From Thermoanaerobaculia bacterium (GTDB taxonomy: Bacteria > Acidobacteriota > Thermoanaerobaculia > Multivoradales > UBA5704): a DNA stretch of 64,000 nucleotides. The position numbers and the translations under genes were made by a program. The stretch spans positions 31,678 through 95,677 of the forward strand of contig JBGAGQ010000019.1 of the NCBI GenBank assembly GCA_044226625.1, in the 5' to 3' direction. The notes beneath the pieces were generated by a model. The model saw only the letters and a program-made list of their open reading frames with translations, made no database searches and had not been told where the DNA came from. Numbering within the stretch: the first letter of the stretch is position 1; the number at the start of each line of letters is the position of its first letter. This document shows, piece by piece, positions 47,400-63,333 of this stretch.

Positions 47400-47400
47400 C

Positions 47401-49638
47401 TCACGCGGCTCGTTCGGGCAACCGCTCCAACACCCGCGCGTCCCGGAACCGGAGCGCCATCGCCAGGCCGCCACCCCCGAGCATCAGATAGAGGCCGAAC
47501 CAGACCAGGCCGATCAGCGGCTTGGTCGTCACGTCGACCGCCAGGCTCGGCGGATTGCTTACCCCACCGAGCTCGACCTCGACGTGGCCAGCGGAGGCGT
47601 CGATCCGCGAGACCCGGATCGCACCGCCCCCGGGAAGGTCGACGGGTGGCGTTTCGACCTCGCCGCTGCCCGGGCTCAGCCGATAGACCGGCCGCACGGT
47701 GGAGGTCTTGCCGTTCCGGGTGACCGCGAAAATCGTCCCGATGGTGATCTGCTTGCCCGCCGACATCTGGGCGAGCGCGTTGCCGTCGGCGTTCAGGTCG
47801 AACCCCTCGAACTTGACCGTGAGGTCGCCCACCGCGCTCTCCTGCCCCTTCGCGAGCGACAGCTCGGGGCGACCCGGGTCGTACTGGATCGGCGAGACGT
47901 AGAGGTCGGAGGAGAGGGTCTTGCGGATATCGGGGTTCACCATCAGCTGCTGCGTGCGCTGGTTCAGGAACATTCGGGGGAAGAGCTTGTAGCTCTTACC
48001 TCCCGCCTCGACCACCTGGATCTCCATGCGGTCGCGCTGCTCCTCTGCGGTCGGCGGCAGGTAGCGGGTGAAGGTATAGGTTTTCCCGCCGCTCATGACG
48101 GGCTTGCCCTGGACCAGCGTCAGCTTGGTGCTCTCGTCGTAGGCCGACGAGGCGAGGATGCCGAGCAGCATCACGCCGACGCCCGCGTGGGCGAGATAGC
48201 CACCGGCCGCCCGGACCCCGCCGGCGCGCCATTTGGCGACCGTCTTGTGGAGGTTGGAGGCGAGCGCGAGCGCCGAGAACAGGACCAGCGCGATATCCAT
48301 CGCGTCGCGGACCTGCCAGACGACGAAGGCGACCGCGATCACCGTGCCGACGACCAGCGGTACGAGCATTTGGTGGAGCACCCGGCCCACCTCGTCCCCT
48401 TTCCACGTGAGGTAGGGGAGGAAGGTGAGCAGGACCGCGACGGCGATCGCGATCGGCTTGTTGACCAGGTTGTACCACTCGGGTCCAACCTGGCCGACGT
48501 TGGCCTGGAGGCGGGTGAGCAGCGGTGCGGAGGTACCGTAGGTGATGACGAACGCCGAGGCCGAGATCGCGATCGTGGCGAGCACCAGGAAGGTGCCGCG
48601 CGAGAAGATCGGATCCTCGTTGCGTTCGGTAGGTACCTCGCGCCAACGCGTGGCGAGCAGCAGGACCGACAGGCCGATGAAAGCGGTCATCAAGGCGATC
48701 AGCCAACCCGAGATGCCGAGGTCGACGAAGCTGTGGACCGAGAAATCGGCGAGCACGCCCGAACGGGTGAGGAAGGTGCCGTAGAGCACCGACAGGTAGA
48801 CCGCCGCCGCGATCAGGTAGTTGGCCCGCCGATAGCGCTTCTTGGTCCGCTCCATGTGGAGCCCGTGAACCAGGACGGTGAGGCAGAGCCAGGGAATCAG
48901 CGACGCGTTCTCGACCGGATCCCATCCCCAGAAACCGCCCCAGCCGAGGGTCTTGTAGGCCCAGTACCCGCCCATCAGAATCGCGCAGCCGAGCACCAGG
49001 AAGCCGAATAGCGCCCAAGGGTATGCTCGGGCGGCCCAGCCGTCGTAATCCCGTCGCCAGAGGGAAGCCATGGCGAAGGCGAACGGAATCGCGGTGGCCG
49101 CGTAGCCGATGAACATGATCGGCGGGTGGATGACCATCCAATCGTCCTGGAGCAGTGGGTTCAGCCCCTGGCCGTCCGCGGGCGACTGCGAGAGCATGAC
49201 GAACGGGTTCTCGCGCACCAGGATGAAGATCAGGCCCAGCAGCGTCGCGAGGTAGATCACCATCACCGGCGCTTCGCTCTTGCCCGCAGTGCGCTGGACG
49301 AACAGCCCGAGCATCGTCCCCCAGAACAACCAGATCAAGAAGCTCCCCTTCTGGCCCGCCCAGAACGAGGCGAACTGGTAATGCCCGGGAAGATCGAGGC
49401 CCGAGTACTGGAACACGTACTCGACGCGGAAGTCGCGCATCAAGAGGACCAGGATCAGCATCAACGCGGTCATGCCGATCGCGGCGGCGAAGCAGGCATA
49501 GGCGCGACGGCCGAAGGCGATCTCCGCCGCGTCGCCGCGGAGCGCCCGGGAGTAGCCCCAGACGGCGGCGAGCGCGAAGACCAGTGCGGCCCAGATCGAG
49601 ACCGCGCCGGGGAGGTAGAGATGGGTCAGTGCGTTCAC
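47401..49638 (-). CDS. ccmF: Cytochrome c heme lyase CcmF
   Basis: FWAGQKGSFL.W, GLNPLLQ..WM.IHPP, GGYWAY..LGWGGFWGWDPVENASLIPW, GTFLTRSGVL..SVHSF. Confidence 0.96.
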   Translation of the reverse strand: MNALTHLYLPGAVSIWAALVFALAAVWGYSRALRGDAAEIAFGRRAYACFAAAIGMTALMLILVLLMRDFRVEYVFQYSGLDLPGHYQFASFWAGQKGSFLIWLFWGTMLGLFVQRTAGKSEAPVMVIYLATLLGLIFILVRENPFVMLSQSPADGQGLNPLLQDDWMVIHPPIMFIGYAATAIPFAFAMASLWRRDYDGWAARAYPWALFGFLVLGCAILMGGYWAYKTLGWGGFWGWDPVENASLIPWLCLTVLVHGLHMERTKKRYRRANYLIAAAVYLSVLYGTFLTRSGVLADFSVHSFVDLGISGWLIALMTAFIGLSVLLLATRWREVPTERNEDPIFSRGTFLVLATIAISASAFVITYGTSAPLLTRLQANVGQVGPEWYNLVNKPIAIAVAVLLTFLPYLTWKGDEVGRVLHQMLVPLVVGTVIAVAFVVWQVRDAMDIALVLFSALALASNLHKTVAKWRAGGVRAAGGYLAHAGVGVMLLGILASSAYDESTKLTLVQGKPVMSGGKTYTFTRYLPPTAEEQRDRMEIQVVEAGGKSYKLFPRMFLNQRTQQLMVNPDIRKTLSSDLYVSPIQYDPGRPELSLAKGQESAVGDLTVKFEGFDLNADGNALAQMSAGKQITIGTIFAVTRNGKTSTVRPVYRLSPGSGEVETPPVDLPGGGAIRVSRIDASAGHVEVELGGVSNPPSLAVDVTTKPLIGLVWFGLYLMLGGGGLAMALRFRDARVLERLPERAA

Positions 49639-49740
49639 GGTCGAGTCCTCCTTGTCCTTCGGCGCCCTCCCGCCGGCTCCGTTCCGGGGCCGGCGCCGGG
49701 AAACAGACCGCCGAGCTTCGCTCCCGCCCGAATCCTGCGG

Positions 49741-50136
49741 TTAGCTGTACGTCTTCACTTCAGCGCCCTGGTACTTGCTCGGGCACTTGACCAGCAGCTT
49801 GCTCGCCTCGAACTGCTTCGAGACCTCGTCGTAGCGGCCGATCGCGACGACGCTGATCGCGTCGTCGAAATTGCCCGGCCGCACGCCGTGATAGCGCACT
49901 CGCAGCGGTTTCGAGGTGTTGGGCTCCAGGAGCGTGAAGGAAAGCGCCTTCTCGTCGTTCGAGTAATCGGCGCTCCCCTTCTGCAGACCGCCCATCACCT
50001 GCACCATGCGCTGCGAAGAGGTCGCCTGCTCGAAGCTCACGTAGGGCGTGAGGCTCTGCTGGAACGACATCAGCGAGAAGCCGGCGAAGCCGAGCAGCAT
50101 CAGGGCTCCCACGGCGTACCAGAGGTTGCGTTTCAT
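49741..50136 (-). CDS. ccmE: Heme chaperone CcmE (CxxxY variant)
   Basis: TM anchor, Y.GVRP.NF, FEA..LLVKCPSKY. Confidence 0.92.
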   Translation of the reverse strand: MKRNLWYAVGALMLLGFAGFSLMSFQQSLTPYVSFEQATSSQRMVQVMGGLQKGSADYSNDEKALSFTLLEPNTSKPLRVRYHGVRPGNFDDAISVVAIGRYDEVSKQFEASKLLVKCPSKYQGAEVKTYS

Positions 50137-50145
50137 GGCCGTCTC

Positions 50146-50274
50146 CTAGGACTTGCCCGTTCCGCCCGCTTCGAGACCGGCGAGCCGCCGGTCGATGCGT
50201 AGCAGGAAGAGGAAGAGTCCCGTCCAGATGATCAAGTTCACCGCGAAGATCCAGAACAGTCCGCCGAGCTCCAT
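50146..50274 (-). CDS. ccmD: CcmD-family small membrane protein (42 aa; below the ORF-track cutoff)
   Basis: Manual translation MELGGLFWIFAVNLIIWTGLFLFLLRIDRRLAGLEAGGTGKS: single TM helix plus charged tail, between ccmC and ccmE. Confidence 0.8.
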   Translation of the reverse strand: MELGGLFWIFAVNLIIWTGLFLFLLRIDRRLAGLEAGGTGKS

Positions 50275-50318
50275 GGTGTCCCTTTCCCGAATCGAAGGTT
50301 ACTCCGCGCCGGAGCCCG

Positions 50319-51005
50319 TTACGACGGGTCGTCCTCGCGGGCGTCGACGAGCGCTTGGGTGCGCGCGCGCAGGTTGTGAATCCAGAAGAACAGCACCGAG
50401 TAGGCGAGCGCCGAGCCGATCAAGACCGTGAACATCCGCGGATCGACATCGAGCTTGCGCTCCGAATTGAGCACCGGCTCCGGATGGAGCGACTCGGTGA
50501 TCCGCGGCACGATGAAGTAGAAGAACGGCGTCACCACCAGGGCGATCAGGGCGTAGACCGAGGAGATCCTCGCCCGGATCTCCCGATCCGCCATCGCGCT
50601 GCGCAGCGCGAGGTAGGCGCCGTAGAACAGGAGCACGACGACGATCGAGGTCTGGCGCGGGTCCCAGTTCCAGTAGGCGCCCCACTCGATCCGCGCCCAG
50701 AGCGAGCCGGTCACCGTGGCGAGCACGCCGAACAGCACGCCGCATTCCACCGCTGCCGCGGCCGCCCGATCGTGGCGCATCCGACGACCGCCCCAGAGGA
50801 AGCGGGCGCTGTAGATCGCCGCGGTGAAATAGGCGACGAACGAGGTCCAGGCCATGGGCACGTGGAAGAACAGGATCCGGCTCGATTGCCCGACGAAAGC
50901 AGGATCCGACCAGGCGTAGAAGAACGCGCCCCAGATGCAGAGCGACATCCCGAGCCAGAGCACACCGCGAAGTCCGAGCGAGATCGTTCGTGTCATGGGT
51001 TCCAT
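50319..51005 (-). CDS. ccmC: Heme transporter CcmC
   Basis: RILFFHVP.AW, TGSLWAR..WG.YWNWDPRQTS (WWD domain), SLHP. Confidence 0.94.
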   Translation of the reverse strand: MEPMTRTISLGLRGVLWLGMSLCIWGAFFYAWSDPAFVGQSSRILFFHVPMAWTSFVAYFTAAIYSARFLWGGRRMRHDRAAAAAVECGVLFGVLATVTGSLWARIEWGAYWNWDPRQTSIVVVLLFYGAYLALRSAMADREIRARISSVYALIALVVTPFFYFIVPRITESLHPEPVLNSERKLDVDPRMFTVLIGSALAYSVLFFWIHNLRARTQALVDAREDDPS

Positions 51006-51679
51006 ACCGCGGGAAAGAGCATGAGCCCTGCGATGGTGACCGAGCCATCATATAGAAGGAGCTGGGGGAGCGCGGGCCCGGCCGGATCGCCCGCGACGGC
51101 GTTCCGGGTGAGCTCGATCGCGAGCAGCAGGAGCGGCATCAGCACCGGGAAAGCGAGGACCGAAAAGAGCGTGCTGCGGCCGCGCGCCTGGCTCGCCAGC
51201 GCGGCGATCAGGACGCTGCCCGCCGCGAGACCGTAGCCGCCCGCAAACAACGCGACCACCAAAAGCGCGGGCGCCTTCACCTCGAGGCTCATCACGGCGA
51301 GGTAGAGCGGCGCGATCAAGGCCTCGATGCCGAGCAGTAAGCTCACCCCGAAGGCGAGCTTGCCAACGAACAGCGCGGACGGCGGCGCGGCCAAGCGAAG
51401 CGCGGTCGCGGTATGGCTCTCCTCCTCGTGGACGAACGCCCGCGGCAGACCGGCCGCGGCGGCGAACAGGAGGATCAGCCAGAGCATCGCGGGCAGGACG
51501 TTGATCGCGAGCGATTTGTTGGTACCGGCCGGGCCGAGGGCCGCGCTGGTCACGACCAGCGTGGTCACCGCGAACAGGGCGATCGCGTTCAAGGCGTAGC
51601 GGCTGCGCAGCTCGCAGCGCCAGTCCTTCGCGACGACCGCCCGCGCGCTACCGGCCCAGCTCGAGGTGGGAGACGACAC
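50993..51679 (-). CDS. ccmB: Heme exporter permease CcmB
   Basis: KDWRCELRSR, F..EEE..T...L, GK, VLAFPV.MP.L motifs; GTG start inferred. Confidence 0.9.
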   Translation of the reverse strand: MSSPTSSWAGSARAVVAKDWRCELRSRYALNAIALFAVTTLVVTSAALGPAGTNKSLAINVLPAMLWLILLFAAAAGLPRAFVHEEESHTATALRLAAPPSALFVGKLAFGVSLLLGIEALIAPLYLAVMSLEVKAPALLVVALFAGGYGLAAGSVLIAALASQARGRSTLFSVLAFPVLMPLLLLAIELTRNAVAGDPAGPALPQLLLYDGSVTIAGLMLFPAVWNP

Positions 51680-52262
51680 CCGAGACCTCCAGGGAGATCG
51701 GCGTGGCCACGACGACGAGGCCGCCGGCGTCCAGATGCTCGCCGAGCAGGGAACGCAAGGTGTTCTCGCCCTCAAGGTCGAGGTTCTGGAACGGTTCATC
51801 CAATAACAAGGTGCGCGGCCGGGCGAGAAGCGCCCACGCCCAGCGCAGGCGCTGCCGCATTCCGGAGGACAGGGCGCCCGCGAGACGGTCGGCCGGCAGC
51901 CCGACGCGCGCGAGCAACTCGCCCGCCCGGGCGGTCGGCAGGCCGCGCAGGCGAGCGAAGAACTCGAGGTTTTCGCCGGCGGAAAGCTCATCGTAGAAAG
52001 CGAGGTCGGGAGAGACGAAGCCGATCCGCGCGCGTCGCTCGGCGGGCGAGAGGGCGACTCCCTCCTCGACGTGCTCGATCGAGCCGCCGTCCGGCGCGAG
52101 CAGGCCGGCGAGGCAGCGCAGGAGCGTGCTCTTGCCCGAGCCGTTCGCGCCCCGGACGAGCAGCGCCTCGCCGCCGGAGACCCGGCCCGAAGCGGGCTCG
52201 AGCGCGCGCACTCGGCCGAATCGGCGCCGGAGGCCTTCGAACACCAGAGAGACGGAGCTCAT
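51648..52262 (-). CDS. ccmA: Heme exporter ATPase CcmA
   Basis: GANGSGKSTLL, LSSGMRQR, LLLDEPFQNLD; upstream of ccmB. Confidence 0.9.
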   Translation of the reverse strand: MSSVSLVFEGLRRRFGRVRALEPASGRVSGGEALLVRGANGSGKSTLLRCLAGLLAPDGGSIEHVEEGVALSPAERRARIGFVSPDLAFYDELSAGENLEFFARLRGLPTARAGELLARVGLPADRLAGALSSGMRQRLRWAWALLARPRTLLLDEPFQNLDLEGENTLRSLLGEHLDAGGLVVVATPISLEVSGVVSHLELGR

Positions 52263-52405
52263 CGCGAAGGAGTATATGGGGGGCTGGCGCGAGCGACACC
52301 GCCCACCGGGGCAGGAGACCCGCGCCTCCGGCCTCGCATTTGGAGAGGAACCTGGTAACATCGGGGTTTCGAGCAGTAGCTGCCTATCGAAGAAGGAGCT
52401 GAATC

Positions 52406-54304
52406 ATGAGCGCGCTGGGGCTCGCGATGGCTCGCCGAGACGCGGAGATCCATCCAGCGATTCTCGACGGCCTGCTCGGCCTCATGGCGAATCGAGGGCG
52501 GGACGGCCGGGACGTCGCCGGAGCCCGCGGCGGCGCGCTCGGCCACCTTCATTTCTGGACCACCCCCGAAGAGGTCGGCGAGCGCCAACCGATCCCGATT
52601 CGCGGTGGCCGCGCCTGGCTCGCGTTCGACGGCCGGATCGACGATCGCGAAGCGCTCTGGCGCGCGATGCCGGAGTTTCCGGGTCCTTCCCGTTCGCTCG
52701 GAACCACGAGCGACGCGGCGCTCGTCGCGGCGGCCTACGCGATTTGGGGACTCGACGCGTTCTCCCGGCTCCTCGGTCCTTTCGCGATCGCGATCTGGGA
52801 CGCCGAAGAGCGCCGGGCGATCCTCGCGCGCGACCCGCTCGGCGGCCGCGGCCTGGCCGTGGTGCTCGAAACGCATCGGTTGCTCGCGGCCTCCGAAGCC
52901 GGCGCGCTCGCCGCGGTGCTCGGCCGTGAGACGGAGCTCGATTTCGCCCGTGTCGCCTCGTATTTTTCGCTCGAAGACTCCGATCCCAGGCGCACTTTTT
53001 GTCCGTGCGTGCGTCAAATGTTGCCCGGCGAGATCCTCGTGGTCGAGGCGCAGCGCGAACGCTGGATTCGCCTTCCCCCGCCGCTTGCCGTATCGCCGGA
53101 GCTCGTCGCCGCCGATCCCGAAGAGCGCGCGCGAGAGCTCGGCCGTCGGCTCGACCTCGCGATCCGCTGCCGCCTGCGCTCGGTCGGTCGGCCGGCGGTC
53201 CTGTTGAGCGGCGGCCTCGATTCGTCGCCGATCGCGGCGCTCGCGCGGCGTGCGCTGCCGGAGCGGGAGGACCTGTGCGCGATCTCCTGGGTCTTTCCGC
53301 GCCATCCCAGGGCCGACGAGAGCCGACATCTCGCGGTGCTCGAGCGCGAGCTGGGCCTCGAGCTCCATGCCCTGCCGTGCGACGACGAGCTGCCGCTCGG
53401 CGACCTCGCGAGCTGGCCCTTGCACCCGGCCACCCCGGAACAGAACGCCTACCGCCGTTTCCATGAGCGCGCCTACGAAGCCGCGGCAGCGCTCGACTGC
53501 GGCGTCCTCCTCTCCGGAATGTGTGGCGACCAGCTCTATGGCGGCGCCGAATTCCGTCTTCGGGAGGCGTTCGGCGCCGGCCGTATCCGGGCGGCGGTGC
53601 GGGCGGTCGTCGCGCTCGCGGGCGGCGGCGCCCTGCGGCCCGCGCTCGGCGCGCTGTTTCCCGATCGATTGCGGCTGGAGCGCTCTGCCCGGCGGGCCGC
53701 CGAACGTTTCCCTTGGCTCACCGAGCGCGCGCTCGAGCTCCTCCCCGATCCGGTCGAGCGAGACGGCTGGGCGTCCGGCTATCGCCGTCCCGCCCAGGCC
53801 CGGAGCCTCCTTTCGGCGATGAACGGACACGGACTCGCCGTCGAGCGGCACTACGGCGACCGGCGAGGAGTCGACCTCCGCTACCCCCTGCGCGACCGGC
53901 GCGTCCTCGAGCTCTTTCTTTCCCTTCCCGCCGACGATCTCGGAATGCCAGAAGAGCCGAGGCCGATCCTGAAGCGCGCGATGAGATCCTTACTTCCAGC
54001 CTCGATTCTCGCGCGAACGGACAAAGCAACGTTTGAAGAGATTTTCCGCGCAGGCGTCTATCGGGATCCCAGCGGATCCTTGGCCGCAATATTGCTTTCA
54101 AAAAATGCAGCATGGCGTGAGTTTTTGCGTCCGGACTGGATTGAAAACGGCTGGAAAGATCGGAGCCTCGGCCTTTCTGGATTACTCGTTTGGTTAGCGC
54201 TTTCCTTTGAGCTTTGGCTTCGCCGACCGCTCGGCGCCTTCGAGCCCGCCGATTGGGGACGAGCTTTCGATTCCCGGGAGCAGCTGCGTCGAGCCGGACG
54301 ATAA
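52406..54304 (+). CDS. Asparagine synthetase-like protein, probable lasso cyclase (isopeptide-bond synthetase)
   Basis: Ntn-like N-domain lacking the catalytic Cys2 (MSALG...), FDGRIDDR, LARDPLG, LSGGLDSS PP-loop, SGMCGDQL, RYPLRDRRV; adjacent to a lasso-type precursor. Confidence 0.85.
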   Translation: MSALGLAMARRDAEIHPAILDGLLGLMANRGRDGRDVAGARGGALGHLHFWTTPEEVGERQPIPIRGGRAWLAFDGRIDDREALWRAMPEFPGPSRSLGTTSDAALVAAAYAIWGLDAFSRLLGPFAIAIWDAEERRAILARDPLGGRGLAVVLETHRLLAASEAGALAAVLGRETELDFARVASYFSLEDSDPRRTFCPCVRQMLPGEILVVEAQRERWIRLPPPLAVSPELVAADPEERARELGRRLDLAIRCRLRSVGRPAVLLSGGLDSSPIAALARRALPEREDLCAISWVFPRHPRADESRHLAVLERELGLELHALPCDDELPLGDLASWPLHPATPEQNAYRRFHERAYEAAAALDCGVLLSGMCGDQLYGGAEFRLREAFGAGRIRAAVRAVVALAGGGALRPALGALFPDRLRLERSARRAAERFPWLTERALELLPDPVERDGWASGYRRPAQARSLLSAMNGHGLAVERHYGDRRGVDLRYPLRDRRVLELFLSLPADDLGMPEEPRPILKRAMRSLLPASILARTDKATFEEIFRAGVYRDPSGSLAAILLSKNAAWREFLRPDWIENGWKDRSLGLSGLLVWLALSFELWLRRPLGAFEPADWGRAFDSREQLRRAGR

Positions 54305-54314
54305 CGAGGTTTCA

Positions 54315-54491
54315 ATGTCCCATTCTCCCCATTCCCCCATGTCCGAACCCACCGCCACAGGGTTCGCCACGCCGAAGCGGCCCTACGAAGCGCCCCGGTT
54401 GATCGAGCTGGGCGACCTTCGTACGCTGACGCTCGGGCCTTCCCCCGGCATCGGCGAGAGCGGCAACCCCGCTCTGTTCAAATCTCGCTAG
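54315..54491 (+). CDS. Lasso-type RiPP precursor peptide (core GPSPGIGESGNPALFKSR)
   Basis: Leader motif YEAPRLIELGDLRTLTL (YxxPxL...G...T at -2), Gly1, Glu8; RBS GAGG; alternative ATG at 54339. Confidence 0.85.
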   Translation: MSHSPHSPMSEPTATGFATPKRPYEAPRLIELGDLRTLTLGPSPGIGESGNPALFKSR

Positions 54492-54512
54492 CGGTTGTAC
54501 GAGGTGCAGACA

Positions 54513-57500
54513 ATGTCCGAAAATCCGACGCCTCTCTCGCGCCGTCTCAATTCTGCGAAGGGTCTCGTGCTCGGGATCGCCTTTCTCGCGTTCGCCGGTC
54601 CCCTGGCTCGGCCGGCGGCCGCGTTGACCTACCGCTACGACAACACCACGTCGGGTGCCGTCAACTTCTCGGCTGCGGCCGCGGGGTCCGCGGGCTGTGC
54701 GACGCCGCTCGTGCGGACCTTTACGGTGTCCGATTCGTTCACCGTTTCGAGGGTCGGCCTGGGCTTCAACGTCAGCCACACCAACCGGGGCGATGTGCGG
54801 GCCACCCTGGTGGCACCGAGCGGAACGTCGCTCCAGCTGATTGCGGGAAACGCGGGGGGAGGCGGCGACACGGACGACAACTACGACATCCTGATCTCGT
54901 CGAACACGGAAGGTGTGCTCGACGACAACGACACCGACCCGACGGCGGCTCCCTTTTTCAATCGCATCGTTCCGGTGGCGACCATCGATACGACGTTTTC
55001 CGGCGTCGCCGCGGCAGGGACCTGGACGCTGAACGTCTGCGACATCAACAACAACGGGACGAACGGCACGTTCAACCGCGCGTACCTGACTCTATCGAGC
55101 ACGACGGCGGCGACCTCGACCTGCACCGGCACTGTGTCCTTCGACTGGGGGGCCAACGGAAACGTCGTAGCGTTGACCACGGCGACGGTGGGCGACGTCA
55201 CGATCACCCAGGGTGCGACAAGTGATTTCGCCGGCACCGGGGCGAGCGCCGGCGGTACGTTGGGCAACGAGATCGTCACCCGTACCACGACGAACGGTAA
55301 CCACACCGGCTACTACTCGATGTCGATGGACGCCTCGGCGCTCGCCGGTACCCAGGACAACGAGGCCGTGGGTTTGGCGTCGACCCTTACCTTCTCGCGC
55401 CCGGTGCGCGATCTGCGATTCACCTTCCTCGACGTCGACATCACCGGTGCCGCGTGGGAGGACCAGGTCGAGATCGTGGCGACCGGCCCCTCCGGGAGTC
55501 AGGTGCCGTACACCATCGCGGCGGTCGCCGGCGGAAACGCCCAGCTCGCGGGCGACCTGGCCGAAGGAGACGCATCGGCGGCGGTCACCGCCACGACCGG
55601 CAATCTTGACGTGCAGTTCTCCGGCGCGGTGTCGTCGCTGACGATCAACTACAGCCAAGGGGACGACCCGGCGAACGAAAACGCTTTCATGGTGGTCGGC
55701 ATCAGCGACTTCTCGTTCTGCGCTTACGACTACGGCGACGCCCCGAACACTTACGGCACGCAGCTGGCGGGCGGCGCCCGCCACGCGATGGGCGACCGCA
55801 CGCTCTACCTCGGCACCAACCCGCCGGACGGCGAGGCCGACGGCCAGCCGGCCGCGGGGGGAGCGACGGCGACCCCCGACGACACGACGCAAGTCGGGGG
55901 CGTCGACGACGAGGACGGCGTGGCGACGTTCCCCAACTACGCCTCTCCCTCGACGAGCTATACGGTGAGCGTGACGGCGGTGAACCTCTCGACTACCACC
56001 GCGGCCTCGCTGGTCGGCTACATCGACTGGAACCGAGACGGCGATTTCGCCGACGCGAACGAGATCTCCGCGACGACCAACGTACCAGCGAACACCTCGT
56101 CGCCGACGGCGTTCAACGTCACCTGGAGCTCCGTGCCGACGAACGCGGGGGGCACCACTTCGACCTACGCCCGGTTCCGAATTTCGTATACCGCGTCGGA
56201 GGTGACCTCGCCCACCGGGGTCGCGACCAGCGGCGAGGTCGAGGATTACCAGATCCCCGTCAATACCCTTCCGGTGACCCTCGCTTCGTTCTTCGCCGCG
56301 CGGACGGCCCGAGGCCTCGAGGTCGAGTGGACGACCGAGACCGAGACGTCGACCGTGGGGTATGCCCTGCTCGGCCGCAAAGGCCCCAAGGACCCCTGGC
56401 GGCGCTTGACCCCAAAGATGATCCCGGCCCGCGCGCTCGATCGGCTCGCGCCCCAAAGTTACCGGGCCGTGCTGGCTGACGAAGTATGGACCGAGCTGCT
56501 CCTCGAGGACGCCGGAATCCTCGGCGAACGGACCCGTCGCGGGCCGTTCGCCCTGGACCGCCGTTATGGCCGGGTCTCGACCGCCGAGCCGATCGACTGG
56601 ACGGCGGTCCGCGCCGAGATCGCGGCGGCGGACCAGGTGGACCAAGCAGCGCGGCGCGCCCAGACTCGGGCCGCGACCGCTCCGGCCGCCGAGCTGCGGG
56701 TCGACAGGGACGGCATCTACCGCGTGAGCTACGAGAGCTTGCGCGCCGCGGGGATCGACCTCGCCGGGGCGAACGTCGACCGTCTGTCGATCGAGGTCGC
56801 CCGGACCGGGCAGCCGGTGCCGATCTTCGTCCGGGGAGGCGACAAGAACTCAGGTATCTTCGGTCCCGGCGGTTACGTCGAGTTCCGCGGCGAGGCGCTC
56901 GCCGGAAGCCTCTATACCCGCACCCGGGTCTATCGCTTGACCTCCAAGCCGACCCGACCCCCGGCGCGCGTCGCGATCGAGGACGGCGCCCCCGCGGGAG
57001 CGACGGCCGCCTCCTATCCCGAAACGCTCGCGATCGACCGGGATCTGATCTACAGCTTCGCCTCGCCGAACGGCGACCCGTGGTACGAGGCGCCGGTGCT
57101 CGCCCAGGCGAGCCCGGCCGAGAAGAGCTTCCCGATCGAGGTCGACGCGCTCGCCGGATCCGACGCCCGGCTCCATCTCGAGCTCTGGGGGGTCACCAAC
57201 TGGCCCTCGACGCCCGATCACCATCTCGAGATCTCGCTCAACGGTACCCAGCTCGTCGACGAGCGCTTCGACGGCCTCGTGCCGCGGAGCTACGACCTGC
57301 CGCTCCCCGCGGGCCTGCTGTTCGAGGGCACGAACACGCTCACCGTCCGCCTGCCCGGCGACACGGGCAACGCGTTCGATCTGGTCCACGTCGACCGCTA
57401 TGCGCTGACGTACCCGCGGCGCTTCGCGGCGCGAGAGGGGAGCCTGCGGTTCCCGAGCGCGCCCGGCCGGATCGAGGTCTCCGACCTCCCCTCGTCCGAC

Positions 57501-58742
57501 GTCGTCGTCTACGCGAGGTCTGGCGCCTCCCGGGTGGCCAACGTCGCCGTCGAGGGGGCGGGCGGCTCCTACCGGGCGTCGTTCTCGGTTCCCGGAGGAA
57601 GCGCCGGAGCTCGCGCGGGCTCGGTGGACGTCGTCGCGTCGTCCTCGCTGCTCGTGCCCGCGATCCAACCGGCGCGCACGGTGGCGGCCGACCTGGGCTC
57701 CCGGCGGGCGGACTACCTGGTGATCACCCACCCGAGCCTCGCCGGAGAGCTCGCCCCGCTGGTCGCGGCGCGCGAAGCGGAAGGATTCAAGGTCAAGGTG
57801 GTCGACGTCTTCGATCTGTATACGGCTTATAGCGGCGGCGAGGTCGATCCGGCGGCGATCCGGAACTACCTGCGGTACGCCGCGCAGCAGCTCGGCGCCC
57901 GTTACGTCCTGCTGGTCGGCGCGGACACCTACGACTATCTCGACCATCTCGGGATCGGCTCGGTGAGCCTGATCCCCACGCCGTACGTCCAGACAGACGA
58001 CCTGATCCGCTTTACGCCGGCCGACTCGGTCTACGCCGACCTCGACGATGACGGGGCGCCCGATCTGGCGCTCGGCCGCCTTCCCGCGCGCACGGCGGCC
58101 GAGCTTCATCTGCTGATCAGCAAAACCCTCGCGTTCGACGGCACGCGAACCGGCGCGCTGCTCGCGGCCGACGGCACCGACGCGGAGGGCGCCCGGACGT
58201 TCAGCTCGATCAGCGACCAGCTCGCTCCGCAGCTGCCGGCCGGCTGGCCGCTCGCGCGCACCTATGTCGACGACCTCGGGGCCGAGACGGCGCGCGCGCA
58301 GCTGATCGCGGCGTTCAACCAGGGGCCCGCGTTGGTCCACTTCGTCGGCCACTCGGGACCGACCGTCTGGAGCTTCCAGGGGTTGTTCTCCTCGGCCGAC
58401 GCCGACGCGCTCACCAACTTCACCGGGCCGTCGCTGGTGGTCCAGTGGGGATGTTGGAACACGTACCACGTGGCCCCGGAGCTCGATACCCTGGCGCACC
58501 GGATGCTGCTCGCCGGGCCGCAGGGAGCGGCCGCGGTGATCGGCTCCTCGACCCTCTCGCGCACCGAGTCGGACCAGCTGCTCGGACCGGCTCTCCTCGG
58601 CCGGCTGGCGGTTCCCGGCGCGACGATCGGCGAGGCGTTGAAAAACGCCAAGCGGGCGATCGCGGCCGGGCCCGGCGACCTGCGCGACGTGCTCCTCGGC
58701 TGGACGCTGCTCGGCGACCCCGCCCTGAAGCTCCGGCGATGA
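54513..58742 (+). CDS. Secreted multidomain C25 (gingipain-family) cysteine peptidase with P-domain and GEVED domain (~1409 aa)
   Basis: Signal peptide; P-domain (SHTNRGDV.ATLVAPSGT...GTWTL.V.D); DYGDAP...IDWNRDGDF...YARFR...GEVEDY; C25 motifs ADYLVIT, YVLLVG, GRLP, HFVGH, WGCWN, LLGDP. Confidence 0.85.
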   Translation: MSENPTPLSRRLNSAKGLVLGIAFLAFAGPLARPAAALTYRYDNTTSGAVNFSAAAAGSAGCATPLVRTFTVSDSFTVSRVGLGFNVSHTNRGDVRATLVAPSGTSLQLIAGNAGGGGDTDDNYDILISSNTEGVLDDNDTDPTAAPFFNRIVPVATIDTTFSGVAAAGTWTLNVCDINNNGTNGTFNRAYLTLSSTTAATSTCTGTVSFDWGANGNVVALTTATVGDVTITQGATSDFAGTGASAGGTLGNEIVTRTTTNGNHTGYYSMSMDASALAGTQDNEAVGLASTLTFSRPVRDLRFTFLDVDITGAAWEDQVEIVATGPSGSQVPYTIAAVAGGNAQLAGDLAEGDASAAVTATTGNLDVQFSGAVSSLTINYSQGDDPANENAFMVVGISDFSFCAYDYGDAPNTYGTQLAGGARHAMGDRTLYLGTNPPDGEADGQPAAGGATATPDDTTQVGGVDDEDGVATFPNYASPSTSYTVSVTAVNLSTTTAASLVGYIDWNRDGDFADANEISATTNVPANTSSPTAFNVTWSSVPTNAGGTTSTYARFRISYTASEVTSPTGVATSGEVEDYQIPVNTLPVTLASFFAARTARGLEVEWTTETETSTVGYALLGRKGPKDPWRRLTPKMIPARALDRLAPQSYRAVLADEVWTELLLEDAGILGERTRRGPFALDRRYGRVSTAEPIDWTAVRAEIAAADQVDQAARRAQTRAATAPAAELRVDRDGIYRVSYESLRAAGIDLAGANVDRLSIEVARTGQPVPIFVRGGDKNSGIFGPGGYVEFRGEALAGSLYTRTRVYRLTSKPTRPPARVAIEDGAPAGATAASYPETLAIDRDLIYSFASPNGDPWYEAPVLAQASPAEKSFPIEVDALAGSDARLHLELWGVTNWPSTPDHHLEISLNGTQLVDERFDGLVPRSYDLPLPAGLLFEGTNTLTVRLPGDTGNAFDLVHVDRYALTYPRRFAAREGSLRFPSAPGRIEVSDLPSSDVVVYARSGASRVANVAVEGAGGSYRASFSVPGGSAGARAGSVDVVASSSLLVPAIQPARTVAADLGSRRADYLVITHPSLAGELAPLVAAREAEGFKVKVVDVFDLYTAYSGGEVDPAAIRNYLRYAAQQLGARYVLLVGADTYDYLDHLGIGSVSLIPTPYVQTDDLIRFTPADSVYADLDDDGAPDLALGRLPARTAAELHLLISKTLAFDGTRTGALLAADGTDAEGARTFSSISDQLAPQLPAGWPLARTYVDDLGAETARAQLIAAFNQGPALVHFVGHSGPTVWSFQGLFSSADADALTNFTGPSLVVQWGCWNTYHVAPELDTLAHRMLLAGPQGAAAVIGSSTLSRTESDQLLGPALLGRLAVPGATIGEALKNAKRAIAAGPGDLRDVLLGWTLLGDPALKLRR

Positions 58743-59494
58743 CGGACCTCCTCGGGCCGCGGCCGGGGGAGGCGATCCTCCGGTTCGGCCCGGGCGAAGC
58801 GGGATTTCGTTACACCCTCGTCGACCGTACTCTCTGGACCGACCGGCCCCTCCTCTGCCTCGGGCCTCCGGAAGCACGCGGGCTACTGCCGCCGCCTTCG
58901 CCGTCGTGGAACCCGCCGTTCGACGCGAGCGCGGAGCCCGACCGCTTCGAGGAGCTCGCGCTCGGCCCGCCGATCCTCACCCTGCTCGCCGAACGCGGCG
59001 TCTGGGCCCTGCACGCGAGCGCGGTGTTCCTGGGCGACCGGCTGTTTCTGCTGGTCGGAGAATCCGGACGTGGCAAATCCACGCTCGCGGCGCATGCGGG
59101 GACCACCGTCCCGGGTTGGCGGCGCGCCGCCGACGACCTCGTCCCCTTCGAGCTCCGCGATGGCCGGCTGCTCGCCCACCTCGACTATCCGCAGCTCAAG
59201 CTCGACCCGCCCCGGCGGTCCGTCGCTCCCGCGCCGGCCACGGCCCTGATCGTCCTCGCCGGCCCGGGCTCGGCGGTCCATCCGGAGCTCACGGCGCTCC
59301 GGCCGAGCGAAACCGCGCAGCTCCTCTGCGCCCAGACCGTCGCCGCGCGCCGCTTTCCGCCCGATCTGCTGGCCGCCCACTTCGATGCCTGCGCCGAGTT
59401 GGCAAAGGTCGTACCCGCCTACCGGCTCGCGCTGCCGCGCGATCTGGCGCGCCTCGGCGAGGCGGCGGCCCAGATCGACACCATCCGCTCCTGA
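58739..59494 (+). CDS. HPr kinase-like P-loop kinase (lasso-cluster type)
   Basis: LHASAV...LLVGESGRGKSTLA...AADD; ATGA overlap with the C25 gene stop. Confidence 0.8.
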   Translation: MTDLLGPRPGEAILRFGPGEAGFRYTLVDRTLWTDRPLLCLGPPEARGLLPPPSPSWNPPFDASAEPDRFEELALGPPILTLLAERGVWALHASAVFLGDRLFLLVGESGRGKSTLAAHAGTTVPGWRRAADDLVPFELRDGRLLAHLDYPQLKLDPPRRSVAPAPATALIVLAGPGSAVHPELTALRPSETAQLLCAQTVAARRFPPDLLAAHFDACAELAKVVPAYRLALPRDLARLGEAAAQIDTIRS

Positions 59495-59622
59495 GCCGCC
59501 CCGGCTCGCGGCCGCGGATTCGTCGCGTTCCCATCGTCATCTCGGCGGTCCGTTTCCGCTTCTTCCGGTAGGGGAGTGCCTCGGGTGGCCCGAGGCCTGC
59601 CGTCCCGATCGGAGAACGCGCC

Positions 59623-62600
59623 ATGCCGAAACCAGGTTCCTTCCGCCGGGCCGCCCTCGCGGCGGCCCTCCTCCTCGCCTCGCTGATACCGCTCCTCGTC
59701 GGACCAGCTCGCGCCGCCGTATCGGTCGGTCCCGCGATCTGCATCGAGCCGGCGCCGGTCGATCCTCCCGGTCCGACGCTCACGCCCTGGAACTACGAAC
59801 GCGACTCCGGCGAGTACGTCTGGGGCGAGCATCAGTTCTACGAAGATCCGGGCGATACGGTGTTCACCCTGGCGCGCGATCTGATCAGCCTGGGAAGCCA
59901 GCAGCCGGCGGCCTACACGGACGTCCTCCTGTTCAACTTCGCGCAGTTCGATCCGCCAGAAGGGATCCCCGTTCCGCCGGGAGGGACCCGTCGCCTGATG
60001 GAAGCGTCGCTCGAGAACAAGGGTCTGTCGCTCCTGGTCAACTACAGCGACGCGCTGATCGATCCGGCCCAACCGGTCCGGTACGGCAAACCGACCTTCT
60101 TCCAGTCGATCGACGGCCACCACCAGAACACGCAGACCAACCCGACGGTGCCGTGGAGCGGCTTTTCGCAGACCTTCGTCTCCGCGACTCGAGGCGCGTT
60201 CGGCTGCGCGTTCGACAAGCTGCCCGTGGCGGTCGACCCGGTGCCCGTGGGCCCGCTAGCCCGGCTGGCCGCCCCGGCGGCGCCGGCGGGCGGAACCGCG
60301 GGGATCATCGTCACTCCGGCGACGCCGATCTGCGACGACCTCTACGTCACCGCGGGGATCGGCTACGGCCTCTCCGGTCTCGATCCCGACCCGGCCCAGC
60401 AGGTGATGGCGGCACAGGCGCAGACCGATCTGCTGATGCGTCGCGACCCGACCACCGGCCGTTGGAACGACGTATCGCAGGAGATCTGCCCCTCCGGCGC
60501 GCCGCGCATCCCCGCCGCGGCCACGGCCGGCAACAGCTCGGGCGTTGTATTCCAAGATCTGACCGGCGACGGTTGGGCGGACCTCTACGTCGGCCGCCAG
60601 GGAGACGACTACGCGGGGGCGACCAACGTCCTTCTGATCAACGACGGCACCGGCTGTTTCCGCGACGAAACCGGGACGCGAATCCCGGGAGAGCTGGTCC
60701 GCGCGACGAACGAGGTCGCGGCGATCGACCTCGACAAAGACGGGGACCTCGACCTCGCGGTCGCCGACCGGTGTGCTCGCGCCGGGTGCGGCCCGGAGAG
60801 CGAGGACTACGTGTTGATCAACAACGGCACCGGGTTTTTCACCGTGGCGTCGATCGCCCCGGGCGTCCGCACCGACAGCCGGAGCGTCGCCTTGGGCGAC
60901 CTGAACAAAGACGGCTATCCGGAGATCGTTTTCGGCAACGCGGGGTCGGACGGCTTCAGCCAGAACCTCGTCCTGACCGCGGCCGAGGACCACCGGATGG
61001 AGATCTACGTCAACAACGCGGCCACCGGCGGGACGCTCAACACGTTCACCGACTTCATGTTCCCGATCCTCGACACCGGCGCGCCGAATTTCCCGGTCGA
61101 GCACATCGTGACCGCGCCGCTCACTCAGCAGGTGCTGCTCGCCGATCTGTTCAGTCCGAATGCCAACGTCCCGGACGGCTGGCTCGATCTGGTGATCGTC
61201 TCGCATCGCGACATCCTGAAGACCGACACCTACGTCGGCGCTTCCGCCCGCGTCTGGGTGATGGCCAACACCGCCAACTGGACCACCGCGCCGCCGCCGT
61301 ACCTGCGCTCCTACACCGCGGTCGGCCAGCCGTGGGTGAAAACCGTGGCGATCGCCGACTTCGACAACAACGGCTTCAAGGATCTGTTCGAGGGGCGCGG
61401 CAACCGGTGGAGCGGCGTGCTGCCCGATCTCGCCGCGAACCTGGGGAGCGCGGCTCCTCCGTTCAACCCGTGGAACGGCAGCGATCCGTTCGTCGGCTTC
61501 AAGAGCTACCAGACCATGCCGGCAACGGAGCACGGCTACGGTTTCGATTTCGCCGACCTGGACGGCGACGGATCGCTCGACGCGCTCCAGACCTCGCGAG
61601 GCTACGACTACCTGGTGTTCAACCTGCTCGGCGCGAGCGAGGCCGACCATCGCGAATACGCCTCGCCCACCGCGGGGACCGGCAAGACCAGCAACAAGCG
61701 AGGCCGCCAGGTACCGCAGGGAATGGAGGACGGCGTGTTCGCCGACTTCGATCGGGACGGCGACCGAGACGCTCTCCTCGGCTCGCAGCGCACGCCGGCC
61801 TGGCCGTTCTGCGCCGACACGAGCCCGGACTCGATCGTCCTGGTGAACGCGGGCAGCGGTACGTTCGGCTATGACTCGCTCTACACCGCCTCGACCTGCT
61901 CGACCGACGACGCGCGGATCGACTTCGGCGCGCGCACCTCGCAGCCCTATCCGGGCATCGGCGACCGGGCGGTCGCGGGGGATCTCGACAACGACGGAGA
62001 CGTCGATGCGATCGTCCATCTGTTCGAAATCCTGCCGAGCGGCTACTCCGGACCGACCCCGCTCGTCTCGGCGCCGCTCTTCCCGAACGCGATCGGCACC
62101 TACTCCTTCGGCTGGCGCTATCTGAAGAACATCGTCGGCGAGGCGGGCGCCGGGGCCCACTGGTTCAAGGACGTGGCCCCCGCCCAGATGAAGAACGCCT
62201 CCGGTGCCTACGATCCGGCGTGGAACCGTGGCCTCGGCATGGACGTGCTCGCGGACTTCGACAACAACGGGGCGCTCGATCTCTACTCGACGCTCGGCTT
62301 CGCCAAAACCGCGGCCGAGGTTTCAAGCGTCTCGCAGACGCGCGATCTCTTGTTCCTGAACGGCGTGGGCGGCCAGCCGAAAGGCGACCTCACCGAGTCG
62401 TCCGCGGCGAAGCTGGCGCCCTCTTGCACGGATCAGGTTCTTGGCGACACGTCCTTCGTTTCGTGCGGTTCATTTGGCATCGCGCAGGGCGACGTCGACA
62501 ACGATGGAGACGCCGACGTGGCGGTCGCCCATTTCGCGCAGGGGGCTCGCACCAACTACCCCTGGCTGTTGATCAACGGCCTTCCCTCCGGCGGCACGAT

Positions 62601-63333
62601 GGTCGACGCCTTCGTCGCCCGCACCCAGCCCGCGCTGTTCTCACCCGTCATCCACACCGCCCCGACCGACCCGGCGGGCAATCCCACGCCGGGCATGGAT
62701 CACGCGATGTTTCCCACTTTCGCCGATCTCGACGCGGACGGCGACCTCGACCTGGTCTATCAAGTCGTGGACGACCTGCCGCGGGTGCTGCTCAACACGG
62801 GGACCGACTCGAACAACGACGGACTGATCAGCGCCGCCGATTCCCCGCCGCCCGGCAATTTCATCGACGTCACGCCGACGATCCTCACCCAGTATCGGCG
62901 TTCCACCGATTCGCAGGATCTCGTCGCGTTGGACGTCGATCAGGACGGAGACCTCGATCTCGCCAACGATCCGTTCTCCGATCGCGTCACGTTCTGGCGT
63001 AACGACCTCCCCGCCGACCCGGGCCGCCCGGTGGTCACCGAAATCTGGCCGCGCGTCGGCTCGATCCGTCGCGCCAAGATCCGACTCGAAGGGGTGGAGC
63101 TCACCGGCGTCGTGAAAGTTCAGTTCCGCTTCGCGGGAGGCGTGATCTGCGAGCAGGCGACCACCGCCCCGGTGGGCACCGACGGCAAGCACCTCGACGT
63201 GGTGATCCCGCAAACCTGCCCGCTCGGCCTCGCCCAAGTACGCGTGCTGCGCGCGAAGCCGTTGTGCTCGAACCCGACCGTGACGGTCCAGAAATGGAGC
63301 CGCCAGTACTTCGGCTACTTCATCCAGGGGTAA
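59623..63333 (+). CDS. Secreted FG-GAP/VCBS-repeat (beta-propeller) protein with C-terminal Ig/TIG-like domain
   Basis: Signal peptide; more than 10 D-x-D/N-x-DG-x-x-D loops (DLDKDGDLD, DLNKDGYPE, DFDNNGFKD, DLDGDGSLD, DFDRDGDRD, DLDNDGDVD, DVDNDGDAD, DLDADGDLD, DVDQDGDLD). Confidence 0.88.
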   Translation: MPKPGSFRRAALAAALLLASLIPLLVGPARAAVSVGPAICIEPAPVDPPGPTLTPWNYERDSGEYVWGEHQFYEDPGDTVFTLARDLISLGSQQPAAYTDVLLFNFAQFDPPEGIPVPPGGTRRLMEASLENKGLSLLVNYSDALIDPAQPVRYGKPTFFQSIDGHHQNTQTNPTVPWSGFSQTFVSATRGAFGCAFDKLPVAVDPVPVGPLARLAAPAAPAGGTAGIIVTPATPICDDLYVTAGIGYGLSGLDPDPAQQVMAAQAQTDLLMRRDPTTGRWNDVSQEICPSGAPRIPAAATAGNSSGVVFQDLTGDGWADLYVGRQGDDYAGATNVLLINDGTGCFRDETGTRIPGELVRATNEVAAIDLDKDGDLDLAVADRCARAGCGPESEDYVLINNGTGFFTVASIAPGVRTDSRSVALGDLNKDGYPEIVFGNAGSDGFSQNLVLTAAEDHRMEIYVNNAATGGTLNTFTDFMFPILDTGAPNFPVEHIVTAPLTQQVLLADLFSPNANVPDGWLDLVIVSHRDILKTDTYVGASARVWVMANTANWTTAPPPYLRSYTAVGQPWVKTVAIADFDNNGFKDLFEGRGNRWSGVLPDLAANLGSAAPPFNPWNGSDPFVGFKSYQTMPATEHGYGFDFADLDGDGSLDALQTSRGYDYLVFNLLGASEADHREYASPTAGTGKTSNKRGRQVPQGMEDGVFADFDRDGDRDALLGSQRTPAWPFCADTSPDSIVLVNAGSGTFGYDSLYTASTCSTDDARIDFGARTSQPYPGIGDRAVAGDLDNDGDVDAIVHLFEILPSGYSGPTPLVSAPLFPNAIGTYSFGWRYLKNIVGEAGAGAHWFKDVAPAQMKNASGAYDPAWNRGLGMDVLADFDNNGALDLYSTLGFAKTAAEVSSVSQTRDLLFLNGVGGQPKGDLTESSAAKLAPSCTDQVLGDTSFVSCGSFGIAQGDVDNDGDADVAVAHFAQGARTNYPWLLINGLPSGGTMVDAFVARTQPALFSPVIHTAPTDPAGNPTPGMDHAMFPTFADLDADGDLDLVYQVVDDLPRVLLNTGTDSNNDGLISAADSPPPGNFIDVTPTILTQYRRSTDSQDLVALDVDQDGDLDLANDPFSDRVTFWRNDLPADPGRPVVTEIWPRVGSIRRAKIRLEGVELTGVVKVQFRFAGGVICEQATTAPVGTDGKHLDVVIPQTCPLGLAQVRVLRAKPLCSNPTVTVQKWSRQYFGYFIQG

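Follow-up and report, generated by a model that had tools for sequence, protein, structure and literature searches.

How does an operon that looks equipped to make a lasso peptide obtain leader-processing proteins when it encodes none, and what is a large secreted protease doing in its midst? Both questions are raised by four plus-strand genes at positions 52406-59494 of the 64,000-nucleotide stretch analysed here (the window), which comes from a metagenome-assembled genome (MAG; G000) of a soil-type Thermoanaerobaculia bacterium of the phylum Acidobacteriota (6.6 Mb in 133 contigs, 97.9% complete, 5.5% contamination). In order, they encode a lasso cyclase (C), a precursor (A), a PorU-like peptidase of family C25 and a putative kinase of the HprK fold (K), a set referred to below as the module. 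We consider it probable that this is a functional lasso operon of a conserved acidobacterial family, that the leader-recognition protein B1 and the leader peptidase B2 act on its precursor in trans, and that the C25 peptidase is a dedicated partner of the peptide outside the cytoplasm. The finding itself is real and the C25 peptidase is its most unusual part, with a role that is putative.

Gene content of the locus and the predicted peptide

The four-gene layout given in a preliminary description of this DNA was recovered throughout, including the gaps of 10 nt between cyclase and precursor (54305-54314) and 21 nt between precursor and C25 gene (54492-54512) and the ATGA overlap at 58739-58742 that joins the C25 stop with the kinase start. 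The precursor ATG lies at 54315, not at 54316 as given there.

An AsnB-like macrolactam cyclase, as expected of a lasso cluster, is present, albeit with an NCBIfam score under the cut-off. The protein matches Pfam Asn_synthase (3.8e-35) and GATase_7 (3e-18), and its top NCBIfam model is lass_lactam_cya at 213.6 bits, where this narrow model has a cut-off of 525. The SGGLDS ATP-pyrophosphatase motif is intact and there is no N-terminal Cys (no Cys2).

The precursor (54315-54491, 58 aa) is preceded by a GAGG ribosome-binding site 6 nt upstream of its ATG. Its canonical lasso leader, with YxxPxL and Thr at -2, had been claimed before and is borne out both by the NCBIfam model NF033521 lasso_leader_L3 (“lasso RiPP family leader peptide”; 30.5 bits, cut-off 19) and by the motif read directly, Y24-x-x-P27-x-L29 ... 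G33 ... T39, that is Y(-17), P(-14), L(-12), G(-8) and T(-2). The next-to-last residue of the core, GPSPGIGESGNPALFKSR, is Ser. Homologues of 57-63 aa number 21 in a collection of 5.8 billion proteins, and NCBI has given at least one of them the name “lasso RiPP family leader peptide-containing protein”.

Seventeen aligned precursors share the five leader residues just listed as well as G1, G5 and S9 of the core, and all have Asp or Glu at core position 8. Everything expected of a lasso precursor is found here: a YxxPxL leader, T(-2), a core starting with one of Gly/Ala/Ser/Cys (here Gly1) and an Asp/Glu somewhere within positions 7-9 (here E8). Invariant G1 and D/E8 are the pattern expected of a Gly1-Asp/Glu8 macrolactam, and a G1-E8 ring is predicted for the window core. 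In the subgroup to which this core belongs, the pattern is GxSPGxGESGNPxxF[KR] with an unconserved extension of 1 to 14 residues, and in the alignment as a whole conservation of the core is lowest at its C-terminal end. Microcin J25 has a Gly1-Glu8 eight-residue macrolactam, two bulky plugs near the C-terminus and a very short tail. By analogy with it, S9-L14 may form the loop and F15/K16 are candidate plugs ahead of a 2-residue tail; the likeness is drawn from the pattern of ring, plugs and tail. The microcin J25 cluster differs from the present one in having a fused B protein and an ABC exporter and in having no kinase or C25 gene.

We regard it as very improbable that the product is a branched-cyclic or linear phosphorylated peptide instead of a threaded lasso. 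Topology is unreadable from sequence, and related kinase/recognition-domain cassettes yield linear peptides (PMC13381572), whereas a cyclase gene always lies beside the present precursors and their invariant G1 and D/E8 are a ring-closure signature.

Leader-processing genes lie elsewhere in the genome

Descriptions of lasso peptides usually present self-contained clusters of the form A-B-C(-D). The window locus has neither an in-cluster B2 nor an in-cluster PqqD-like recognition element (B1; RRE, for RiPP recognition element, RiPP being a peptide that is made by the ribosome and modified after translation), and Pfam and NCBIfam scans of the window detected no B1, B2 or ABC exporter between 52.4 and 64 kb, just as the preliminary description had it. 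Its heading, by which leader peptidase and RRE are lacking, is right for the locus and not for the genome. The genome search proposed there, run in six frames over the whole assembly, finds exactly one Transglut_core3 (B2) and one PqqD (B1) match, side by side on contig C21 (G000:C21:61250-61883). They belong to a second, complete kinase-type lasso cluster (L003, 52000-69022) with a precursor, a cyclase of 565 aa that is 28.6% identical to the window cyclase, an HprK-like protein of 314 aa, B1 and B2.

The C21 precursor reads RYISPRL...LTR|S, and both precursors of the genome have a YxxP leader. RREs tell WxxP from YxxP leaders (PMC13381572), and this discrimination bears on the possibility that one RRE serves both. 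Because the window precursor retains the YxxPxL...T(-2) recognition and cleavage motif, action of the C21 B1 and B2 on it in trans is plausible.

The same split between module and B1/B2 is seen in the genus relatives G007, G038 and G048; a further one, G127, has the B1/B2 cluster and no cyclase of the window's type. Among the 19 module-bearing genomes of the first neighbourhood set described below, window included, B2 lies in the locus in two, G011 and the single-contig genome G117, for which it is the only B2. For fifteen of the other 17, a clear B2 is found at another place in the genome, in most cases next to a second cyclase, and in G086 (69% complete) the B2 signal is a 27-bit match only. 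The counts behind these comparisons take in G145, a genome flagged as unpublished, on which no statement here depends. Genome G385, also a single contig, has a fully scattered lasso pathway: its module copies are at 1.48 and 2.18 Mb, its sole B2 at 3.00 Mb and its best PqqD match at 1.79 Mb, and the lone B2 and the lone PqqD each have no cyclase, kinase or precursor within 8 kb.

Maturation could instead be independent of B proteins, the leader being removed by a housekeeping protease or by C25 itself and the scattered B genes serving other lasso clusters. We judge this unlikely. B genes are missing from 17 of 20 module loci by tblastn, the YxxPxL motif has been lost in two genomes of family f3, and G003, which has the module, no detectable PqqD and no lasso-type B2, keeps such a route open. 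Lasso synthesis without a leader and a leader peptidase has also reportedly been described (Zyubko et al. 2019), which counts in favour of this alternative. Against it, all 17 precursors, that of G003 included, keep Y, P, L and T(-2), which points to ongoing recognition of the RRE/B2 type, and the two f3 genomes without YxxPxL have an RRE fused to the precursor. Leader removal by C25 is further at odds with the Sec-type signal peptides of these proteins, given an ATP-dependent cyclase that needs a free Gly1 in the cytoplasm. In four members of the cyclase clade (G117, G011, G032 and G071) B1 and B2 occur within the locus alongside C25, which is therefore no substitute for B2 there. Since leader motif and T(-2) are invariant wherever the B genes lie, and B genes are present elsewhere in the genome, shared B1/B2 acting in trans are favoured.

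The fused genes of the f3 relatives G014 and G002 deserve separate mention. In each, a PqqD/RRE-like domain and a lasso precursor occupy one open reading frame (ORF) with no stop between them; A-C-L-L-R-H stands in place of YxxPxL, and T(-2) and the core are retained. Identity between the two proteins is 45% over 139 aa, and their RRE part matches the C21 B1 of the source genome (E 2e-7). We know of no described RRE-precursor fusion. The positions of these and the other features are collected in Table 1.

Table 1. Positions of the module genes in the window and of related genes in the source genome and its relatives
Feature	Position	Strand	Details and basis
Lasso cyclase (C)	52406..54304	+	AsnB-like, 632 aa; Pfam and NCBIfam
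Precursor leader	54315..54434	+	40 aa; NF033521
Precursor core GPSPGIGESGNPALFKSR and stop	54435..54491	+	Alignment of 17 precursors
Secreted PorU-like C25 cysteine peptidase	54513..58742	+	1409 aa; Pfam, NCBIfam, PDB relatives
Putative HprK/PEPCK-fold P-loop kinase	58739..59494	+	251 aa; NCBIfam, AlphaFold/Foldseek
B2	G000:C21:61250-61585		73.2 bits
B1	G000:C21:61683-61883		59.3 bits
G385:C1 loci	L181, L182, L200, L201		Two C25-cyclase-precursor loci, lone B2, lone PqqD
RRE::precursor fusions	L045:18318-18749; L197:14696-15289	-	G014 and G002, family f3

Conservation and joint inheritance of the module

A cyclase match at E<=1e-30 was found in 78 of 201 genomes of the order. The first neighbourhood set consisted of the 20 best non-self cyclase matches among these 201 genomes, five of which are cut by contig ends, and was searched with the window proteins by tblastn. 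A C25 orthologue adjoins the cyclase in 18 of the 20 loci (the misses are G025 and G043), a precursor is present in 18 (17 by tblastn, one by motif scan), a kinase in 15, and B1 and/or B2 in three. The second set combines 11 loci, found by searching 401 genomes of the phylum with a precursor profile, with nine further cyclase matches; C25 is adjacent in 11 of these 20, including two families outside the order, represented by G283 and by both copies in G385. Six of the nine loci without it are generic lasso clusters with distant cyclases. Both sets together give C25 adjacency in 29 of 40 loci. The preliminary description had reckoned with the case that homologous cyclase/precursor pairs never co-occur with C25 genes; its suggested neighbourhood analysis disposes of that case, because an orthologous C25 gene lies beside the pair in 18 of 20 loci and in other families of the phylum. 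A search with the cyclase alignment and the SGGLDS pattern returned clear relatives in three of 80 loci, the rest being for the most part AsnB or lasso cyclases of a generic kind, drawn from many phyla.

Gene order varies: C-A-C25-K in this genus, f4, G101 and G022; C25-C-A-K; C25-C-A-K-B1-B2 in G117 and G011; K-A-C25-C in f3, also as K-RRE::A-C25-C; and C25-A-C-K. The flanks of the module are unrelated between genomes (Pfam, 62 ORFs at eight loci). The C25 stop and kinase start overlap or abut in the window, G007 and G101.

Trees were built for 39 cyclases (fragments L180, L181 and L190 left out) and for 28 linked C25 proteins over the 825 conserved residues at their C-terminus (rows with fewer than 600 residues covered, L053, L044, the first copy of L199 and L180, left out), both as quick IQ-TREE runs with support from the Shimodaira-Hasegawa-like approximate likelihood ratio test (SH-aLRT) only. 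One cyclase clade (SH-aLRT 99) unites all 28 C25-adjacent cyclases with five non-adjacent ones, stands apart from generic lasso cyclases, the C21 copy of the source genome among them, and includes the window cyclase together with cyclases from loci with B1 and B2. The C25 tree mirrors most groupings of the cyclase tree, and groups that cross taxonomy appear in both: this genus (f1) with f4, G101 (f7) with G022 (f11), and G117 (f1) with f11. As the C25 tree repeats cyclase groupings that contradict taxonomy, the module is, on the evidence of these trees, inherited as a unit and has probably been transferred as one. Strict co-variation of core type and C25 type was rejected as a rule, G047 and G146 being exceptions.

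Read in this way, the neighbourhoods and trees indicate that the C25 gene is not a chance insertion. It might still be a co-regulated passenger, which we think rather unlikely: a secreted protease under the same promoter as the lasso genes, serving nutrition or the remodelling of the surface, with no molecular interaction with the peptide. The N-terminal parts of the C25 proteins vary widely and are adhesin-like, five members of the cyclase clade have no adjacent C25, and no exporter is present at the loci scanned; contact between C25 and peptide is something we only infer. A mere passenger is harder to reconcile with an adjacency that persists through at least four rearrangements, among unrelated flanks and across families of the phylum, with the overlapping or abutting C25 and kinase codons, with the agreement of both trees on taxonomy-crossing groups, and with the genome's other C25 gene, which has no such neighbours. 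Persistent linkage, codon overlap and co-inheritance argue for a functional tie between C25 and the peptide.

At one locus, L041 (G047:C15), cyclase and precursor have a C25 protein on either side, one of 1446 aa and one of 2852 aa, with SdrD_B/DUF11 repeat stalks. Their peptidase domains are close and form neighbouring tips of the C25 tree on short branches (0.15).

The C25 peptidase

The window C25 protein begins with a signal peptide of the general secretory (Sec) type at about residues 1-37, read by eye, and contains the Pfam domains P_proprotein (79-192), GEVED (500-581) and Peptidase_C25 (1068-1407, 1.3e-67). It stops two residues past the C25 domain, with no further C-terminal domain. 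All 12 readable N-termini of linked C25 proteins are likewise Sec-type with AxA sites (by eye), and the parts that follow are diverse (P-domain/GEVED, SdrD_B repeats and others). Because of the Sec-type N-termini and an end right at the catalytic domain, C25 is predicted to act outside the cytoplasm, and would therefore be unable to provide the free Gly1 that a cytoplasmic cyclase requires.

Residues 728-1407 are PorU-like, with scores of 140.9 bits for NF033707 T9SS_sortase (cut-off 420) and 139.2 bits for NF052324 PorU_rel_Nterm, both under the cut-off. The closest solved relative of residues 985-1407 is PorU (6za2, E 3.5e-10). His1280 (VGHSGP; 58350-58352) and Cys1314 (QWGCWN; 58452-58454) occupy the positions of the catalytic His and Cys when aligned to PorU and gingipain R2, and are invariant across 16 lasso-linked C25 proteins. 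The His/Cys dyad of the sortase in type IX secretion systems (T9SS) is thus present, with a family score short of the cut-off.

PorU is described in PMC8545088 as a transpeptidase, which takes off a C-terminal segment and fixes cargo to the surface. The window C25 resembles it in the aligned GH(S/G)GP and Cys motifs and in its best NCBIfam family, and differs in its sub-cut-off score, the absence of a domain after C25, its acidobacterial host and its place in a peptide operon. A true T9SS PorU was rejected on the score (140.9 against 420), the missing PorV match and the missing sorting domain: no PorV was matched in the source genome, in a search whose positive control was weak, and the only trace of a C-terminal sorting domain in the genome is a 27-bit Por_Secre_tail match on another contig. 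The source genome has two C25 genes, the second of which, on C133, has no peptide genes nearby.

Two further ideas on the role of C25 did not hold. Export of the peptide by hitch-hiking with C25 on the twin-arginine translocation (Tat) pathway was rejected, as the 12 N-termini are Sec-type without a conserved twin-arginine. Arg/Lys-specific trimming of the C-terminus by C25 was weakened by the restriction of F-[KR] to the GESGNP subgroup, with GDSG-type cores lacking it, and F-[KR] is equally explicable as plug residues. A complex prediction for C25 residues 728-1409 with the 45-aa precursor, each entered as an alignment, gave a score of 0.01 (mark 0.32) and says nothing either way.

Astexin-type lasso clusters contain a dedicated isopeptidase and no ABC exporter. 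They resemble the present locus in conserving a protease gene in an exporter-less lasso cluster and differ in protease family, cytoplasmic location of the protease and the presence of B within the cluster. C25 could by analogy be a hydrolase for self-protection or recycling that opens or degrades the lasso. The combination of a protease and no exporter and the invariant catalytic dyad are as this would have it, yet the fold is a different one (clan CD C25 as opposed to the prolyl-oligopeptidase type of the isopeptidases) and the closest solved relative is a sortase-like transpeptidase; we give this role little credence.

The kinase and related kinase-bearing clusters

The kinase has a Walker A motif, GESGRGKST, at residues 107-115. 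Its match to NCBIfam HprK_rel_A is weak (E 6.6e-6, below the cut-off), and 10 of 12 family members match this model. An AlphaFold model with a predicted local distance difference test score (pLDDT) of 89.2 has Foldseek matches to phosphoenolpyruvate (PEP) carboxykinases and to the HprK/P chains 3tqf, 1kkl and 2qmh, and a profile of the kinase family run against PDB sequences gave generic P-loop matches only. Kinases of this genus are without about 60 N-terminal-domain residues found in all other aligned family members.

In paeninodin, the phosphoacceptor is the C-terminal Ser. The preliminary description drew this analogy for the present core, and it was not sustained: a C-terminal phosphosite of the paeninodin type appears not to fit, because the C-terminal residues of the core are the least conserved and a C-terminal Ser is not conserved among the 17 precursors. 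The conserved core serines are S9, found throughout, and position 3, which is Ser or Thr in 16 of 17.

As described in PMC10368454, the bsf cluster of Bradymonas sediminis comprises BsfA, B1, B2, C, D, K and N, and BsfK phosphorylates core Ser3 with the aid of the RRE. The Ser/Thr at position 3 of the window family can be set beside this Ser3. Clusters of the bsf/paeninodin type share with the window family the YxxPxL leader, the split B1/B2 logic, the AsnB-like cyclase and an HprK-like kinase, which in the window family is a putative one. In contrast to bsf, the window locus is without B1, B2, an ABC exporter (D) and a nucleotidyltransferase, and the exporter typical of paeninodin/Bsf-type clusters is found neither at 52.4-64 kb nor at five related loci. 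What the window family has and bsf and paeninodin lack is a secreted C25 as a fixed member; a conserved C-terminal Ser is not among its features. The lpp clusters of Bacillota, for linear polyphosphorylated peptides, also combine an HprK-like kinase and an RRE acting on a small precursor; in contrast to the window locus, they have no cyclase and use an S26-type leader peptidase, and their description contains no mention of C25, gingipain or Acidobacteri (PMC13381572).

Hints of transcription

In one biofilm study, two RNA libraries yield contigs that match parts of 52394-57201 at 95% or more. One piece (54117-54353) spans the cyclase stop to the precursor start. The contigs start at 52394 and 52403, and none lies on 51500-52393, though DNA runs cover everything. 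These data are small shares of runs, contigs and not reads, from a single study, and gaps in operon coverage carry no meaning; they give a weak hint that the locus is transcribed. A scan of 51800-59900 was uninformative, with no promoter-like site and two terminator-like sites, fewer than in shuffled sequence and both inside the C25 gene.

Proposed pathway and its weight

In the pathway that we propose, the RRE (B1) would bind the precursor through its YxxPxL leader and the B2 peptidase would cut after T(-2)-x, both B proteins being supplied in trans by the C21 cluster. The cyclase would then link Gly1 to Glu8 into an 8-residue ring with F15/K16 as plugs, and the kinase would phosphorylate a conserved Ser, either the invariant S9 or S3. 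C25, with its His/Cys dyad intact, would be exported by Sec and become the dedicated partner of the finished peptide outside the cytoplasm, where it may process or anchor the variable C-terminal tail in a PorU-like manner, or where the constrained peptide may control the protease. Cleavage or transfer of the tail, control or inhibition by the peptide, and degradation of the peptide are all candidate roles for C25. The preliminary description had offered B proteins in trans and a distinct C25-linked system as an either/or; both halves find support and they are not mutually exclusive, the role of C25 excepted.

Several points weigh against this pathway. An ABC exporter is absent from all five module loci scanned with Pfam, and it is therefore unexplained how a cytoplasmic peptide meets a secreted enzyme. 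In G003 (98% complete, 30 contigs), which has a C-A-C25-K locus, no PqqD match reaches E<=0.01 and nothing resembles B2 beyond signals of 26 bits in a 523-aa frame and 19 bits in a 975-aa frame; its B1/B2 are either unassembled or dispensable. Five cyclases of the clade (L037, L042, L193, L196 and L198) have no C25 in the stretch fetched, and G047 and G146 have cores of the type GESGxP...F[KR], yet C25 genes of the other C25 clade. Lasso plugs alone can explain the conserved F-[KR]. The kinase assignment draws on a modelled fold and on sub-threshold family scores, the MAG has 5.5% contamination, with the assignment of C21 to the same organism based on binning and on the same arrangement in congeners, and RNA-library contigs can hold DNA.

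A broader possibility, which we put forward tentatively and hold to be less probable than not, is that PorU-like C25 proteins outside Bacteroidota are, in several phyla, dedicated extracytoplasmic partners of kinase-modified ribosomal peptides that share trans-acting B1/B2. Under this broader proposal, the lasso might be a substrate, its tail being cut and the ring part transferred in a sortase-like manner onto a surface acceptor, or it might be a cognate switch or inhibitor.

The family departs from the customary picture of lasso clusters in three respects. The first is that the genes for leader cutting are often unlinked in a conserved lineage, and are lone scattered genes in one closed genome; the second is a recognition domain fused to the precursor in two relatives; and the third is a secreted clan-CD cysteine peptidase as a fixed operon member. 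No paper linking a lasso cluster to a C25 or PorU-like peptidase was found in the open-access literature and bioRxiv. If protease and peptide interact, this would represent an accessory step of a new kind, or else a physiological role that is new for lasso peptides, and it would give a first functional handle on the many PorU-like peptidases outside type IX secretion.

Neighbouring genes

The divergent minus-strand neighbour upstream is a cytochrome c maturation operon with ccmA (ABC ATPase, 51648-52361), ccmB, ccmE and ccmF; the ccm genes lie at 51648-52361 (-) and 45447-51991 (-), and 44 bp separate the ccmA start from the cyclase start. CcmA/CcmB are part of this operon and not an exporter of the lasso locus.

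The C21 cluster (L003) is flanked on one side by groEL and a small gene resembling those of outer membrane proteins, and on the other by a giant SdrD_B-repeat protein whose frame runs off the contig at more than 1329 aa. Repeat stalks similar to that of this protein bear a C25 domain in relatives such as G047.

Downstream of the kinase, an FG-GAP repeat protein of 1236 aa is encoded at 59623-63333, and the window end coincides with the end of contig C5. Among the compared neighbourhoods, an FG-GAP gene follows the module in this genus only. The last 143 aa of the protein (63003-63333) are repeated at 98.6% identity at C8:88031-88459, the end of an 88459-base contig, and this duplicate is a paralogue or else a repeat at which the assembly broke.

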